A model generated the notes under the pieces. That model worked only from the letters and a program-made list of their open reading frames with translations. It ran no database searches and was not told where the DNA came from. Positions 6,343 to 16,893 of a stretch of 26,907 bases of DNA are shown here, one piece after another. The translations under genes and the position numbers were made by a program. The stretch is from a virus (lineage: Duplodnaviria; Heunggongvirae; Uroviricota; Caudoviricetes), in IMG/VR virus record IMGVR_UViG_2778261676_000004; one strand, given 5' to 3'. The number at the start of each line of letters is the position of its first letter. The stretch's first letter is position 1.

Positions 6343-6981
6343 TTAAATATCTTGTTGAATTTTAAAGCATACTCCCAATATGCAAGATAGATCATCCAGC
6401 ATAATTGAAGGGTAGCGAGGATTCGTGGGGACTAAAAGAATATCCGGCCCTTCTATCTCCAGTTTGCGAATGACAGGCGTTGTGGTCCCTTTGGGTAAGG
6501 CAAGGACAATATTTCCTGGTTGTACGATTCGATCGGGATCAACAAAAACTGTTGAACCATTTGGGATGGAAACTCCACCACCAGATGTCGACATACTGTC
6601 ACTCTCTAGAACAACAGCAAAGGTATTGGCCGGGATTTCTCCGACAAGCTGCACACAAGAGGTTATTGAGGAATTTTTCATATAATCACTCCAGCTTGCT
6701 GCCTGCTGAAGTGATAGTAGCGGAACCGTTTTTATCGGCGGTAAAGATAGATCAAGCGAATCACCTGTATTTAACTCTCCTCCATTAAGAAGCCAATTTT
6801 CGTTTACTTTCAATATCTTTGCCAGTGAGCTTATGTAACGCGAGGACGGCGCTCCTCCACCGTTCATCCATTGACTTACGGAGCCTTTTGATGCGCCAGT
6901 GGCATTGACAAGGTCTTTGCCTTTCAAGTTTAGCGCATGCATACGTTGGGTTATGCGTTCAGATATTGTTTGCTTGTTCAT
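6343..6981 (-). CDS. cI-like repressor: HTH domain plus S24 LexA-like autopeptidase domain
   Basis: 212 aa; N-terminal HTH-like region; C-terminal VVLESDSMSTSGG (Ser of the S24 Ser-Lys dyad in a GDSM-like context) and later VIRKL; divergent from a Cro-like gene. Confidence 0.85.
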   Translation of the reverse strand: MNKQTISERITQRMHALNLKGKDLVNATGASKGSVSQWMNGGGAPSSRYISSLAKILKVNENWLLNGGELNTGDSLDLSLPPIKTVPLLSLQQAASWSDYMKNSSITSCVQLVGEIPANTFAVVLESDSMSTSGGGVSIPNGSTVFVDPDRIVQPGNIVLALPKGTTTPVIRKLEIEGPDILLVPTNPRYPSIMLDDLSCILGVCFKIQQDI

Positions 6982-7072: not shown

Positions 7073-7315
7073 ATGAAAAAATCAGAAGTATTAGGCTATT
7101 TTGGCGGAGTTGTTAAAACAGCCGCCGCTCTAGGAACGTCAAAAACCACAGTCAGCATGTGGGGGGAAGACGTTCCGTGGAAATGGGCGTTGCTAATTCA
7201 GGCAGTCACTGCCGGGGCGCTCAAATATGAGTTACACATACCGACGGTTGTCATTCCCGGTTCTGATCATAATCCGCCTTCTAACCAAGGGGGGATTCAT
7301 GAAAATCAAGCATGA
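7073..7315 (+). CDS. Cro-like HTH regulator
   Basis: Internal start MKKSEVLGYFGGVVKTAAALGTSKTTVSMW...; small HTH protein divergent from the repressor; overlaps the next gene by 17 nt. Confidence 0.65.
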   Translation: MKKSEVLGYFGGVVKTAAALGTSKTTVSMWGEDVPWKWALLIQAVTAGALKYELHIPTVVIPGSDHNPPSNQGGIHENQA

Positions 7316-7724
7316 ACACATCCGCATGGCGATGAATGCCTGGGCACGTCCTGATGGCGAAAAAGTTCCGGCAGCTGGAATAACCCAGGCTTATTTTGAG
7401 TTGGGTATGACGTTTCCTGAACTGTACGACGACAGCCATCCGGACGCCCTGGCTCGCAATACCCAGAAAATTTTCCGCTGGATAGAGAAAGACACCCCTG
7501 ATGCAGTTGAAAAAATTCAGGCGTTGTTACCAGCGATCGAAAAGGCAATGCCACCTTTGCTGGTGGCCAGAATGCGCAGCCACAGTTCAGCTTATTTTCG
7601 GGAGCTGGTGGAGACGCGGGAGCGGCTGGTGAGAGACGCTGATGATTTTGTCGCAGTGGCAATCGCCGGTTTCAATCAGATGAACCGTGGTGGCCCGGCA
7701 GGAAATGCTGTGGCAGTACATTGA
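7299..7724 (+). CDS. YdaT-like / CII-like regulatory protein
   Basis: ATG at 7299 preceded by AAGGGGGG; MKIKHEHIRMAMNAWARPDGEKVPAAGITQAYFELGMTF... resembles the YdaT family found after cro in Rac-type prophages (recalled). Confidence 0.7.
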   Translation: MKIKHEHIRMAMNAWARPDGEKVPAAGITQAYFELGMTFPELYDDSHPDALARNTQKIFRWIEKDTPDAVEKIQALLPAIEKAMPPLLVARMRSHSSAYFRELVETRERLVRDADDFVAVAIAGFNQMNRGGPAGNAVAVH

Positions 7725-7795
7725 CTGACAATAGCCATATCGAATCGCTTCCGGCAACTCGTGAGTAAAAAGATTCGGTATCAGAAGAGGTGAGT

Positions 7796-8866
7796 ATGGC
7801 TAACGCCTGGCTCAGATTATGGCATGACATGCCAAATGACCCTAAGTGGCGAACAATTGCCAGGGTGTCAGGGCAGCCAATTGCAACAGTGATGGCAGTG
7901 TATATCCACCTCCTGGTGAGCGCGTCACGAAATGTCACGCGAGGTCACATTGATGTCACGACAGAAGATTTGGCAAGTGCGCTCGACGTGACAGAAGAGG
8001 TAATTGATTCAATTTTGCAGACGATGCAGGGGCGGGTACTTGATGGTGATTTAATCACTGGATGGGAAAAACGCCAGGTGCTTAAAGAGGACAACGGCAA
8101 TATTTCGCAAACCGCAAAATCTCCTGCAGAGCGCAAGAGGGCGCAGCGAGAGAGGGAAAGAAAGCGGGAACAAAATGGCGATTGTCACGGCGCGTCACGA
8201 AATGTCACGCACATGTCACGACGAGTCACGACAGATAAAGATACAGATAAAGATACAGATCAAGAAGATCAAAACACTATGGTCCATGGCGTAAAAAACG
8301 CCACGAACCAGGCAGGGGATGTTCAGACCGTCAATCTTGGTCAGCCAGCAGGCACGACACCGGAAGCCGATTCAGCGTATGCGCTGAAAGCCGATTCGGG
8401 CGCTGTGCAGCAGGTGATGACCGCAAGGCTGGAGCAATCACACCAACTGCAGCAGCCCGAAGCCGATTCCGCCATTCAGCGGGAAGCCGATCGGGTAGTC
8501 CCGGAAAACACCGGGCAGTCTGTGGGACGAGTGGATTATCCGGATGTGTTCGAACAGGTCTGGCGGGAGTACCCGTTGCGTGCCGGAGCAAACCCGAAGA
8601 AATCAGCTTTCAGTGCCTGGAAGGCCAGATTACGCGAGGGGGTGCCACCAGAGGCCATGCTGGATGGCGTGAGGCGTTACGCAAGATACTTGGCGGCTAC
8701 CGGGAAAACGGGAACGGAATTTGTTCAGCGAGCGACGACGTTTTTTGGACCGGACCGGAATTTTGAGAACCCCTGGTTGCTCCCGGTAAGCGGCACGAAC
8801 AACCAGCGTTGTGTGAATCATATTTCTGAACCGGATAACGAAATTCCGCCGGGCTTCAGGGGGTAA
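7796..8866 (+). CDS. Replication initiator, phage O-like (Phage_rep_O-type N-terminal domain)
   Basis: ATG at 7796 with GAGG 6 nt upstream; N-terminus MANAWLRLWHDMPNDPKWRTIARVSGQ typical of O-like replisome organisers; iteron arrays inside the coding sequence. Confidence 0.85.
   Translation: MANAWLRLWHDMPNDPKWRTIARVSGQPIATVMAVYIHLLVSASRNVTRGHIDVTTEDLASALDVTEEVIDSILQTMQGRVLDGDLITGWEKRQVLKEDNGNISQTAKSPAERKRAQRERERKREQNGDCHGASRNVTHMSRRVTTDKDTDKDTDQEDQNTMVHGVKNATNQAGDVQTVNLGQPAGTTPEADSAYALKADSGAVQQVMTARLEQSHQLQQPEADSAIQREADRVVPENTGQSVGRVDYPDVFEQVWREYPLRAGANPKKSAFSAWKARLREGVPPEAMLDGVRRYARYLAATGKTGTEFVQRATTFFGPDRNFENPWLLPVSGTNNQRCVNHISEPDNEIPPGFRG
7921..7962. repeat. Iteron-like cluster 1: four GTCACG/GTCACA repeats at about 10-bp spacing
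   Basis: GTCACG at 7924, 7934 and 7955 and GTCACA at 7944; helical-turn periodicity. Confidence 0.6.
8181..8257. repeat. Iteron-like cluster 2 (candidate ori): five GTCACG repeats then a GATAAAGATACA tandem duplication
   Basis: GTCACG at 8184, 8194, 8204, 8215 and 8225 (10-11 bp spacing), followed by GATAAAGATACAGATAAAGATACAGAT; lies in the apparent inter-domain linker of the O-like protein, as the origin does in lambda O. Confidence 0.65.
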
Positions 8867-8906
8867 GTGTTAATTTCTGGTCATGAGGTAATTTTCAGGA
8901 GGGCTT

Positions 8907-9329: not shown

Positions 9330-9530
9330 CGAGATTAAAGTGCATTAGTTCAGATGCAAATTGACATTTTGTGGCACAGGGTAGAGCTAGCGTGGTTGTC
9401 CGCTTTGTGCCAGGAGCGGACGTCTAGTTCGCTGAACCACAAAAAGTCGTTTCTAGTTATATTACTGGCTCATTAGTATCTTTATGCGATAATATTTCAT
9501 ACAACCAAAATTATGATGAAGGGAGTTCAA

Positions 9531-10652
9531 ATGGCAATTACGGTCTATTCTCGTACATTCAAAAAGGAATTGGACATGGTTCAATTGTTAAACCATTACT
9601 CATCAGATAACGCACTCAATTTCAGTGATTTCAAGGAATTTGTTGCCTTTGATGCAGAGTGCCCAATTTGCAATGTAAGCGGTGCGATTGTTGTTTCAGA
9701 AGGTTATTCGAAAAGAACAAATAAGATAGTCAGCCAATCTCATTTTTCGTTTAGAACAAAAGACGGAACTGATGCACACAAAGTATTTTGCGATCATTAC
9801 AGTGGTAATGATAAGCAAATAGATTCATCAAGGGATGGTTTTATAAAATTCGGCACCTCAGGTTCTGAGATTACAAGTATAATTCGCGAGCTTGTATGTA
9901 GAGGTATTGAACATGATGAGTTCAATCAGGAAGATATTCGAAACATGCGGCAATGGTTTACAGAATTACGCCAGTCAGGCACTTTTTCTGTTAACTATAG
10001 CCCTCACATGATCAATCTAATAAGGGCCAGCATGTATTCCCGTAAGGGAGAAAGTAAATATATTGTAGATGAAGAGAGGAAAAATAAATCCTGGTTTGAT
10101 ATAAACGATGAAGTGTATCGTTCGTTAAGATTCAAATATCCATCATTGATGATCGACATGACTAATGAAAATAATTCTGTTTTCTATAATCTTGTGAATA
10201 GTACCACATTTACTAAACAAGCACATCGATTAGTAGCACGAGATCGAGGTTATCAGGTTTATGATAGAAGGTTGCTTAAAGAAAAATATGAAGCAACGAT
10301 AAGAGTTGCACAAAAAATAACCAGGCATCACGAATTTCTTTTTAGGAAAATCAGGGGTATATCCGCTGTTAAAAAAAATAACCCCCTTTTGGCTGTATCT
10401 GCCTTGCTTCTTTTTGTCTCGGACTGGAATGAAACAACTGCAATCAACAAATTCATCAAATTGTGTGGTGTAGGGAAATCTAAAAATAATGATGAGGGGA
10501 ATGTAATTGGCTTAAATCCCTTTATTCATTACGATGTCTGGAATGTTATTCATCAACTTAAGGATTTAATGGTTACACTTCCAGACTTCTCAAATCTTGA
10601 TGAAGAATTTGACAGAGAAAAATCCAGATTAATTGAACTTTATAAGCTCTAA
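9531..10652 (+). CDS. Hypothetical protein, cargo gene A (no family recognised)
   Basis: 373 aa from ATG 9531 with AAGGGAG 5 nt upstream; strongly AT-rich coding sequence against a roughly balanced phage backbone; possible metal-binding motifs ECPICN and HKVFCDHY; no Walker A or nuclease motif seen. Confidence 0.8.
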   Translation: MAITVYSRTFKKELDMVQLLNHYSSDNALNFSDFKEFVAFDAECPICNVSGAIVVSEGYSKRTNKIVSQSHFSFRTKDGTDAHKVFCDHYSGNDKQIDSSRDGFIKFGTSGSEITSIIRELVCRGIEHDEFNQEDIRNMRQWFTELRQSGTFSVNYSPHMINLIRASMYSRKGESKYIVDEERKNKSWFDINDEVYRSLRFKYPSLMIDMTNENNSVFYNLVNSTTFTKQAHRLVARDRGYQVYDRRLLKEKYEATIRVAQKITRHHEFLFRKIRGISAVKKNNPLLAVSALLLFVSDWNETTAINKFIKLCGVGKSKNNDEGNVIGLNPFIHYDVWNVIHQLKDLMVTLPDFSNLDEEFDREKSRLIELYKL

Positions 10653-11265: not shown

Positions 11266-12519
11266 ATGTCAAAAAATCTCCCGGTTTTATTAAGCTCGCC
11301 ATCAACAACTAATTTTCCTGCAACAGTTAATACTGAAATAGAATTCCTTTCGCAAGCTAGAAAGTTGTTAGATTCTGGCTTCCCTGATCATGCTCTTTTA
11401 GATATATGGAATGCATCCATTCATAATCTTAGGCGGCGAATTGAGGCTTATGGTTTAGACTTATTCCTTTCCGCAATAAAGGATGATAGTGGTCGTAAAA
11501 AATATGATAAAGATGGTGAAACAATAAACGAGAGATGGTCAGGTGTAGATGATTTAGTGCTAATAAGTGGAGCCACCAAATTAGGGGTTCTGCATAAGAA
11601 AGCTGGAAAATCATTAGAAATGATCAATTGGATGAGAAACCATGCCTCTCCAGCCCATGCAAGTGATAGTAAAGTAGAGTCTGAGGATGTGTTTGCTTTG
11701 GCTCTTATGCTCCAGAAGAATTTATTCGAATCTGATATGCCAGACCCTGGACATTCGCCATCTGGATTATTTGAACCCATAAAAAAATCTGAACTATCAA
11801 TTGAGAGCATAGACTTACTTAAAGATCAAATAAGAGCATTTAAGCAAGCTGATATAAGAATAACATTTGGATTTTTATTGGATTTAATAACTAAGGGGGA
11901 AAATCCTGCTTATGTTAATGCTAGCAAGTTGTTTGAACAAGCATGGGAAAGATCTAATGATGACCTTAAAAAAACAGCGGGGGAAAGATATCACTCATTT
12001 ATGCTGGAGCCCGAATCGGATACAAGTGAGGATAAAGGAGCAAAAATAAGAATTTTAGAGACTTTAGTAAAAGTTAATGGTGTGAAATTTATACCTGATG
12101 CTGCTAGGGCAAGTTTATACAGACATGCGGTTAAACAGCTAGCTAAAGCTAAGGATACATCTTACGGCTGGAATGATGAAGAAAGAGCAGCCAAGGCACT
12201 TATACAATTTGGACCTCATGTTCCATCTATTGCTTTTGAAGATGTATATCAAGAAATACTTACTGTTTGGGTGGGGAATTACTGGGGAAGATCTGATGCA
12301 CATTTAGTACTTCAACCATTTTTAGATGTGTTAAATAGTAATCAATTGATGGCTCTCTCACGGTTGTTCGTGGAGAATGAAAGAGCAAATTCAGAACTGG
12401 TGTCATCAAGGCCCAAAAGAAGAGCAATAGAATTACTTGAGATAATAAAAAATAATCTAACAATTCAAGCAAGCATTGATGAAATTGATAGGATCATTTC
12501 TGAAATTGATAAAATGTAA
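11266..12519 (+). CDS. Hypothetical protein, cargo gene B (no family recognised; possible HEPN-like R-x6-H motif)
   Basis: 417 aa; ATG 11266 with AGGA upstream; AT-rich; motif WMRNHASPAH (nt 11635-11658) fits the HEPN R-x(4-6)-H pattern, but this is a weak single-motif match. Confidence 0.85.
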   Translation: MSKNLPVLLSSPSTTNFPATVNTEIEFLSQARKLLDSGFPDHALLDIWNASIHNLRRRIEAYGLDLFLSAIKDDSGRKKYDKDGETINERWSGVDDLVLISGATKLGVLHKKAGKSLEMINWMRNHASPAHASDSKVESEDVFALALMLQKNLFESDMPDPGHSPSGLFEPIKKSELSIESIDLLKDQIRAFKQADIRITFGFLLDLITKGENPAYVNASKLFEQAWERSNDDLKKTAGERYHSFMLEPESDTSEDKGAKIRILETLVKVNGVKFIPDAARASLYRHAVKQLAKAKDTSYGWNDEERAAKALIQFGPHVPSIAFEDVYQEILTVWVGNYWGRSDAHLVLQPFLDVLNSNQLMALSRLFVENERANSELVSSRPKRRAIELLEIIKNNLTIQASIDEIDRIISEIDKM

Positions 12520-16145: not shown

Positions 16146-16517
16146 ATGGGGATAGAATTTGTTTTGCCTTACCCGCCAACGGTGAACACCTACTGGCGAC
16201 GTCGTGGCAGCACATATTTTGTATCAAAAGCCGGTGAGCGTTATCGCCGTGATGTGGCGCTTATTGTTCGCCAGCAGCGACTGAAATTAAACCTGTCCGG
16301 AAGGCTGGCAATAAAAATTATTGCAGAGCCACCGGATAAGCGCCGCCGCGACCTGGACAATATCCTGAAGGCACCACTGGATGCGCTGACGCATGCCGGA
16401 CTACTTATAGACGACGAGCAGTTTGATGAAATCAATATTGTGCGCGGACTGCCTGTTCCTGGTGGGCGGTTGGGCGTGAAGATTTACGAAATTACAGGTG
16501 ATAACGATGGTGCGTGA
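16146..16517 (+). CDS. rusA: RusA-family Holliday junction resolvase
   Basis: 123 aa; [21 protein letters not shown] ... [26 protein letters not shown] is the RusA signature as I recall it; RBS AAGAGG. Confidence 0.9.
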
Positions 16518-16893
16518 TATTCAGCAGGTTATGGAGCGGTGGGGAGCATGGGCTGCGAACAATCACGAAGATGTGTCATGGGCGTCAATCGCTGCTGGTT
16601 TTAAAGGATTAATCCCGCCGAAAGTGAAATCACGCCCTCAGTGTTCTGATGATGATGCAATGATAATTTGTGGCTGTATGGCCCGGTTGAACAAGAAAAA
16701 TCAGGATTTGCACGATTTGTTGGTGGATTATTACGTAGGTGGAATGACTTTTATGGGGTTGGCACGAAAGCATGGGTGTTCGGATACCTGTATTGGCAAG
16801 CGCCTGCAGAAAGCGGAAGGGGTTATTGATGGCATGTTGATGATGCTTGATATCCGACTGGAGATGGACAGATACGTAGAACGAATCATGTAG
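16507..16893 (+). CDS. Late-gene antiterminator Q (QuuD-like)
   Basis: [36 protein letters not shown]...[14 protein letters not shown] closely matches my recollection of E. coli DLP12 QuuD; overlaps the rusA 3' end by 11 nt. Confidence 0.85.

Follow-up and report, generated by a model that had tools for sequence, protein, structure and literature searches.

Two arrays of the hexamer GTCACG, repeated at helical-turn spacing, lie inside a replication initiator gene of a lambdoid prophage, and together with an adjacent A/T-rich tract, and possibly a hairpin, they very likely form the replication origin of this prophage. The DNA in question is IMG/VR virus record IMGVR_UViG_2778261676_000004, a stretch of 26,907 nucleotides (the window). 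We favor the origin reading because of the clustering and phasing of the hexamers, selection on them at the DNA level, their co-variation between the two arrays and co-inheritance with the initiator, the A/T tract, the disordered protein linker that array 2 encodes, and precedents in other systems. Origins inside initiator genes are textbook knowledge, and the general picture of phage replication is unchanged. What is new is the initiator family and the short, helically phased, two-array form.

The elements of the initiator gene are the following. The encoded protein consists of an N-terminal winged-helix domain, a basic helix, a disordered linker and a C-terminal module, in this order.

7796-8866, plus strand: initiator gene from the open reading frame list, 356 amino acids, ATG at 7796 (a GTG at 7790 lies two codons upstream)
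7796-8080, plus strand: region coding for the winged-helix DNA-binding domain, amino acids 1-95 (AlphaFold)
7924-7960, plus strand: iteron array 1, with GTCACG at 7924, GTCACG at 7934, GTCACA at 7944 and GTCACG at 7955
7987-7992, minus strand: inverted iteron copy (CGTGAC on the plus strand), 27 nucleotides past array 1, encoding D64-V65-T66
8123-8185, plus strand: region coding for the basic helix, amino acids 110-130 (ERKRAQRERERKRE), an AlphaFold helix just 5' of array 2
8184-8230, plus strand: iteron array 2, with GTCACG at 8184, 8194, 8204, 8215 and 8225, encoding linker amino acids 130-145
8231-8275, plus strand: A/T-rich, A-strand-biased tract, 2.9 copies of ACAGATAAAGAT followed by CAAGAAGATCAAAAC; candidate DNA-unwinding element
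8267-8866, plus strand: region coding for the exchangeable C-terminal module, amino acids 158-356
8280-8310, strand not applicable: inverted repeat TGGTCCATGGCGT-AAAAA-ACGCCACGAACCA directly past the A/T tract, core TGGCGT-AAAAA-ACGCCA

Selection on the hexamers at the DNA level

The preliminary description of this DNA had noticed two GTCACG clusters of four and five copies at helical-turn spacing, and both are indeed present, one of the four units of array 1 being GTCACA (7944). Distances from start to start are 10/10/11 bp in array 1 and 10/10/11/10 bp in array 2, and the arrays themselves start 260 bp apart. A stretch of 310 bp holds nine of the 16 GTCACG matches of the window; at the frequency seen outside the cluster, 0.08 would be expected in it. 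When the sequence was shuffled 300 times with dinucleotides preserved, the densest 310 bp of a shuffle contained 1-3 GTCACG, and once 5. A second GTCACG cluster was not found elsewhere in the 26.9-kb window. The conserved core is GTCACG, with a weak preference for T at position -1. Of the spacings measured in 23 diverged loci, 97 are 10 bp and 30 are 11 bp. All nine sites are retained in 75 of 80 near-identical IMG/VR copies (the single-protein IMG/VR scan returned identical copies only and was used solely for population variation).

Relatives for comparison (L numbers below denote single loci) were drawn from annotated phages (Pseudomonas phita81A, Aeromonas pAEv1818), E. coli variants and 39 loci of species-representative genomes. 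In these 39 loci, the identity of the N-terminal domain ranges from 43 to 99%, and the hosts include Escherichia, Serratia, Rahnella, Pseudomonas, Bordetella, Aquitalea, Chromobacterium, Castellaniella and Sphingomonas. Nearly all relatives carry both arrays at the two matching positions, and most homologues also have the inverted copy.

Codon use was analyzed in 24 diverged homologues of the GTCACG type with 51-90% protein identity. At conserved N-domain residues outside the hexamers, normalized codon entropy is mostly 0.65-1.0, near saturation: R7 is encoded by six codons, and P28 by four in about equal shares. In the hexamer codons, the normalized entropy is about 0. In array 1, A43 is GCG in 22/24 homologues, S44 TCA in 23/24, V47 GTC in 24/24, T48 ACG in 24/24, G50 GGT in 24/24, H51 CAC in 23/23, V54 GTC in 24/24 and T55 ACG in 23/24, while the spacer codon R49 is free to vary between CGA, CGC and CGT. 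V65 in the inverted copy is GTG in 21/21, despite the availability of four valine codons. Array 2 gives the same picture (H131 CAC in 21/21, the serine TCA in 23/23, V144 GTC in 23/23). The GTCACG repeats are thus under selection at the DNA level that is independent of the protein, an example of dual coding in which six nucleotides stay fixed while protein identity has dropped to about 50%.

With a period of 10-11 nt, the hexamer falls into all three reading frames, and it is read as V-T, x-S-R and (C/G/S)-H-x. The repeat unit is therefore DNA and not peptide. Reading in three frames also accounts for the fact that H131, S134, R135, V144 and T145 are the sole invariant residues of an otherwise variable linker.

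These data bear directly on the idea that the repeats have no function as DNA and are a by-product of protein conservation, or of a segmental duplication of an ASRNVT...VTT peptide motif. The 356-amino-acid product does contain two related peptides, ASRNVTRGHIDVTT (amino acids 43-56) and ASRNVTHMSRRVTT (amino acids 133-146), which are identical at 9 of 14 positions; the arrays of the window share 21 nt; and the array-1 peptide is conserved across the family. However, synonymous positions are fixed solely in hexamer codons, the 10-11 nt period is out of frame, array 2 changes copy number and frame while keeping the hexamer, and in other lineages a joint switch of the hexamer in both arrays alters the peptide. 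As synonymous sites elsewhere are near saturation, the codon fixation is not due to very recent common ancestry either. This explanation therefore has almost no chance of being right.

The duplicated peptide, from which a segmental duplication had earlier been concluded, is real, but the duplication is not implied. The peptide is shared because the same phased hexamer array is translated in the same frame, and in other lineages, where array 2 differs in copy number and frame, other peptides (for example SHGMSREVTESHD) arise from the same hexamers. An ancient segmental duplication of the arrays may have occurred but is not needed, and local gene conversion could account for the 21 nt (GCGCGTCACGAAATGTCACGC) that arrays 1 and 2 have in common in the E. 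coli lineage.

A comparison of repeat number across related phages, suggested in the same description, gives 3-6 copies per array. Array 1 has four, or six in L003, L004 and L088, where 21 nt (seven amino acids) are inserted. Array 2 has 3-5 in typical GTCACG-type homologues and six in L111, in differing reading frames. The changes come as whole repeat units.

The second array alone had originally been singled out as origin. It is indeed array 2 that adjoins the A/T tract, but array 1 is constrained at the DNA level as strongly as array 2, so that the origin is probably bipartite.

Hexamer switching and co-inheritance with the initiator

Not all relatives use GTCACG. Both arrays consist of GTAACG in loci from Pantoea (L107), Enterobacter (L109), Marinobacter (L117) and Sphingomonas (L119), at the positions and with the phasing of the GTCACG type, and of CGAACG in L114, L116 and L118 (in L118 at gene nt 134/144/154/164 and 359/369/379). 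Clear arrays with one hexamer type at both positions are present in 31 of the 38 genome loci that could be assessed; L122 and L124 have partial arrays. The hexamer type varies within a host group: Enterobacter L109 has GTAACG versus GTCACG in E. coli, and Pseudomonas L116 has CGAACG versus GTCACG in L094. This makes a host factor unlikely as the reader of the hexamers.

More generally, one may ask whether the hexamers are read by a factor other than the initiator. Candidates would be a host or partition protein, or a phage regulator such as the product of the YdaT/cII-like or the DUF977 gene. Plasmid centromeres, too, fit the description of short phased repeats in two groups, and parC of plasmid R1 has two phased arrays. 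In the window, moreover, YdaT-like and DUF977 genes flank the initiator gene. Against this, the arrays are found in Pseudomonas, Aeromonas and Bordetella phages with other neighbors, the variation of the hexamer type within one host group speaks against a host factor, and the early region examined (about 5.4-18.6 kb) has no partition genes. The upstream regulators vary by locus, and the sole gene that always accompanies the arrays is the initiator gene itself. We consider a foreign reader very improbable.

The N-domain, both arrays and the A/T tract behave as one inherited unit, which is joined to at least three unrelated C-terminal modules. Module boundaries from blastn place the junction at about 8253-8271, homology to proteins with other C-modules stops at amino acid 157/158, and in the 80 near-identical IMG/VR copies variation starts at 8261. 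The C-module of the window shares 63% identity with the C-terminal part of the Shigella phage 75/02 Stx initiator, in a BLASTP alignment that begins at amino acid 158 (nt 8267), whereas the N-terminal part of that protein is unrelated, and a DnaC gene follows it. In L003 and L004, the C-module is a DnaT-like single-stranded DNA-binding domain, and a P gene comes next. Matches of the window's C-module are phrog_1701 (“DnaD-like helicase loader”) and phrog_270. Its last 24 amino acids (NHISEPDNEIPPGFRG and the preceding residues) match the C-terminal tail of DnaT model NF002770, which we regard as a lead, not a result.

Since the module junctions lie directly past the A/T tract, and since (GATAAA)n is common to otherwise unrelated genes, the repeats and the tract might be thought to serve mainly as a homology patch for recombination between N- and C-modules. 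This would leave the helical phasing and the co-variation of the hexamer in two arrays unexplained, and array 1 lies 300 bp from the junction. Use of the junction is more simply a consequence of the conservation than its cause, and the idea is barely plausible.

The disordered linker of the C-module also contains four in-frame copies of RAAGCCGATYS (8363, 8387, 8459 and 8483; window 8363-8493), which encode the peptides EADS, KADS, EADS and EADR; phage 75/02 has two copies.

When viral contigs were searched for three phased GTCACG, 60 of the 80 loci examined lay inside the initiator gene family, and about 10 further loci in the linkers of more divergent organizer-like open reading frames. A basic segment before the linker array is found in divergent reading frames as well.

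A model for the probable origin and its known counterparts

Array 2 had been described as lying in an apparent inter-domain linker and as being followed by a tandem duplication. Both statements hold. AlphaFold pLDDT is below 50 for amino acids 135-188 and 190-200, so that a disordered linker holds array 2 and the A/T tract, and the duplicated GATAAAGATACA units are found at 8234-8245 and 8246-8257. In terms of the unit ACAGATAAAGAT, the copies are 8231-8242, 8243-8254 and, at 91%, a third at 8255-8265. The tract contains 71% AT, and the gene as a whole 46%; in 7700-8870, the 40 nt with the highest AT content (75%) begin at 8235, and the top strand there is strongly A-rich. Past the last hexamer of array 2, nearly all homologues have a tract resembling AGATAAAGATA(A/C)AGA, and in most of them it has a GC content of 0.17-0.40 versus 0.5-0.66 for the gene, the exceptions being L112 (0.50) and a few GAACG-type or unclear loci (0.35-0.57). 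It is kept in hosts of 58-66% GC and also in another reading frame (L089, L094, L110), and D147 is GAT in 22/22 homologues while GAC dominates elsewhere in the domain. The bottom strand of the tract, GATCTGTATCTTT, appears to resemble the 13-mer consensus of oriC (GATCTnTTnTTTT). At the right end of the tract, GATC (Dam) sites lie at 8258 and 8267, 9 bp apart, and several homologues have AAAGATCTAAAAGAT there.

A different role for the arrays would be that of operators, which the initiator binds for autoregulation, as a transcriptional roadblock or for copy control by handcuffing, while replication starts elsewhere. Both arrays do lie within a transcribed gene, array 1 is not accompanied by an A/T-rich tract, and G38P of SPP1 binds a second site, which is thought to stall forks and at which replication does not start (PMC3485210). 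However, array 2 always precedes a conserved A/T-rich tract, which is the signature of an iteron origin, the window has no other GTCACG cluster, and every characterized analogue with linker repeats uses them as origin (PMC7466680, PMC5703833, PMC5737612). Regulation and origin function can coexist, and we regard it as unlikely that the arrays are operators only. For an iteron origin, the following signs are present: at least three phased direct repeats, an adjacent A/T-rich tract, and repeats that co-vary and are co-inherited with the initiator, in three hexamer types.

The inverted repeat directly past the A/T tract may belong to the origin as its right-hand element, but the data are suggestive only. 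The repeat at 8280-8310 has a DNA fold of -8.7 kcal/mol (z -2.75), and its counterpart in Stx phage 75/02, TGGCGA-AAAAA-TCGCCA, has a compensatory change of T:A to A:T that alters two amino acids. Across 34 homologues with unrelated C-modules, short G/C-rich hairpins are enriched 27-66 nt past the last iteron (per-locus ranks versus the rest of the locus, KS p = 4e-5, for loci that are not independent). An inverted repeat past the A/T tract was recorded at window 8280-8310 and at L006 2903-2935. Past the A/T tract, about 40-60 nt after array 2, many homologues (L001, L093, L096, L098, L101, L109, L110 and L124), but not the window, have CCCCCC-N3-5-CCCCCC. It encodes PPxPP, GGGGG often comes next, and it may be either an element of the DNA or a motif of the protein where the C-module begins.

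AlphaFold confidently predicts amino acids 1-95 as a winged helix, with a fold like that of the N-terminal domain of DnaD. Array 1 encodes amino acids 43-55, the end of H1 and the H1-H2 loop, in a stretch of the model that comprises the H1-H2 loop and the beta1 strand. We rejected this loop as a DNA-reading element, because in the model the H1-H2 loop and the beta1 strand are away from the recognition helix. A search of PDB sequences with the N-domain profile gave no match. The basic helix (amino acids 110-130) is a candidate for a second DNA contact.

Together, these data suggest a model for the start of replication that is the best reading we can offer and that would resemble lambda ori in O, SPP1 oriL in gene 38 and pSK41 ori in rep. 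From the anatomy of the gene and by analogy with these systems, we infer who binds the arrays, how the binder oligomerizes or loops the DNA, where the DNA is unwound and how the helicase is recruited. The winged-helix N-domain would bind one hexamer per monomer. With a phasing of 10-11 bp, all sites lie on the same face of the helix, so that bound monomers could oligomerize head to tail on each array. The two arrays, 260 bp apart, may then be bridged into one nucleoprotein complex, which would destabilize the adjacent (GATAAA)n A/T tract at 8231-8275. The exchangeable C-module would finally recruit the helicase, presumably host DnaB/DnaC in the phage of the window.

Several points weigh against the origin reading. 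In the searchable literature, we found no binding, unwinding or autonomous replication data for any family member, and the structural evidence is a predicted model. For a specific initiator site, six conserved base pairs are few, and array 1 lies within the domain-coding part. Five of the 38 homologous loci lack clear arrays: the low-GC loci L113, L115 and L120 retain at most about two degenerate copies, at position 2, and L121 and L123 have a different architecture. Roughly 10 of the 80 phased GTCACG arrays in viral contigs are intergenic, without a recognizable homologue nearby. Finally, a search for N-domain residues that track the hexamer type identified none. The basic helix does differ by hexamer type (REQRER, REYRER, AKRWR), but we dropped it as specificity determinant since L111 resembles GTAACG-type proteins yet carries GTCACG.

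In L121 and L123 (Serratia, Pantoea), the same N-terminal domain is fused to a segment (YVYYV...GISRNPWAR; gene nt 300-470) that by eye resembles a GIY-YIG nuclease and has palindromic repeats of the ACTACGTA type; hexamer arrays are absent. Intergenic-looking phased GTCACG in 3-4 copies occurs in unrelated viral contigs (L131, L141, L150, L156, L195, L205 and others), including a giant-virus metagenome-assembled genome (MAG).

The comparison with phage lambda was made at the outset, when array 2 was described as a lambda-like origin inside an O-like gene. The core of this proposal stands, as it passes the tests of synonymous sites, hexamer switch, co-inheritance and A/T tract. In lambda, initiator-binding repeats (19-bp imperfect inverted repeats) followed by an A/T-rich tract lie mid-gene in the linker of O, and in the origins of lambda and Stx phages the number of repeats varies among relatives and adds residues to the protein (PMC7466680). 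The prophage shares the mid-gene position of the (probable) origin, in a linker between a DNA-binding N-domain and an exchangeable C-domain (array 2 encodes amino acids 130-145 of 356), and the position of the gene after cI, cro and cII-like genes. It differs in having direct 6-bp cores with variable spacers of 4-5 nt in place of 19-bp imperfect inverted repeats, a second array within the region coding for the DNA-binding domain, and no P-type loader gene directly downstream. What does not stand is the relatedness of the proteins. The whole protein has no Pfam match at E <= 0.01, and at E <= 10 the N-domain matches only Phage_rep_org_N and HTH_Crp_2, not Phage_rep_O. Judged by these searches, the initiator is not a lambda O homologue and resembles O only in function and gene position.

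SPP1 oriL lies inside gene 38 and combines direct repeats with an A/T-rich unwinding element next to them (PMC6316719, PMC5737612). The gene 38 repeats at nt ~360-450 occupy the same relative place as array 2. Their sequences are unlike those of the window, the second binding region (oriR) is distant instead of 260 bp away, and SPP1 has its own loader and helicase. The N-domain aligns end to end but below threshold with Phage_rep_org_N (PF09681, 15.7 bits with a cut-off of 23.3; TIGR01714, 18.3 bits with a cut-off of 49.8). An IMG/VR reading frame, L174, is a bona fide member of Phage_rep_org_N (29.9 bits to PF09681), and its linker carries three GTCACG followed by (GATACA)n. Comparison of the N-domain with this reading frame by hhalign gave 96% and E 3.6e-9, while comparison of the family profile with SPP1 G38P was not significant. 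Membership in Phage_rep_org_N is thus supported only through the link to L174, and the relatedness would be distant.

In plasmid pSK41, ori is central in rep, the ori-encoded linker is dispensable, and the N-terminal domain of Rep is DnaD-like (PMC5703833). The N-domain of the window has no Pfam match to RepA_N (PF06970), and the resemblance is at the level of the fold. Other differences are the setting (a plasmid of Gram-positives versus a prophage of Proteobacteria), the single set of four Rep boxes, and the C-terminal domain, which in pSK41 binds DnaG. From lambda, SPP1 and pSK41 alike, the window is set apart by its 6-bp cores at one-turn spacing and its second array in the region coding for the DNA-binding domain.

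The initiator gene, its neighbors and its occurrence

The product of 7796-8866 matches phrog_3729, “replication initiation protein”, from end to end (E 3e-257), and homologues begin with MAN(A/S)W. The gene is placed like gene O in a lambdoid early-right operon, next to the following genes.

6343-6981, minus strand: cI-like S24 repressor gene, upstream of the initiator gene
7073-7315: P22-Cro-like gene, upstream of the initiator gene
7299-7724: YdaT/cII-like gene, directly before the initiator gene
Next gene after the initiator gene: DUF977 gene

No gene of the P, DnaC or DnaB family lies between 8866 and the Q gene (16498-16893) in the window, so that in this variant the helicase would have to come via host DnaB/DnaC. 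Relatives with other C-modules do carry P or DnaC. The replication module of the phage in the window thus appears to be one single protein.

The initiator gene is common. It is matched at >=80% coverage in 1,647 of 5,426 complete E. coli genomes, and the phages that have it include temperate coliphages that were isolated as well as phages of Pseudomonas and Aeromonas, with near-identical genes in the isolated phages Tritos and Evi and the vB_Eco series. The NCBI pipeline usually labels the product “hypothetical protein”. We found no description of a phased-hexamer origin for this initiator family in the searchable literature, whose coverage is incomplete, so that this absence is weak evidence. 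Phased GTCACG-type arrays are present in prophages of E. coli, Pseudomonas and Bordetella and also in phage initiators that are far more divergent, some of them in high-GC DNA. Tentatively, and with doubts that outweigh our confidence, we suggest that they represent a widespread, so far undescribed class of phage origins, used by DnaD-like winged-helix initiators. In the proteobacterial family, where the DNA-binding domain of the initiator is encoded in part by one of the arrays, in all three reading frames, a change of site specificity would then entail a change of the protein. In the phage of the window, one protein would make up the entire replication module and capture the host helicase by a DnaT-like C-terminal tail.

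A defined origin would be of practical use. The three hexamer specificities could predict replication compatibility or interference of co-resident prophages, and vectors could be built on a compact replicon of one gene.

Downstream of the replication gene and before the nin/Q region, the window has two low-GC open reading frames, 9513-10652 (379 amino acids) and 11266-12519 (417 amino acids), which have neither a Pfam nor a PADLOC match and may be moron or defence cargo. Phage Tritos has different genes in their place.

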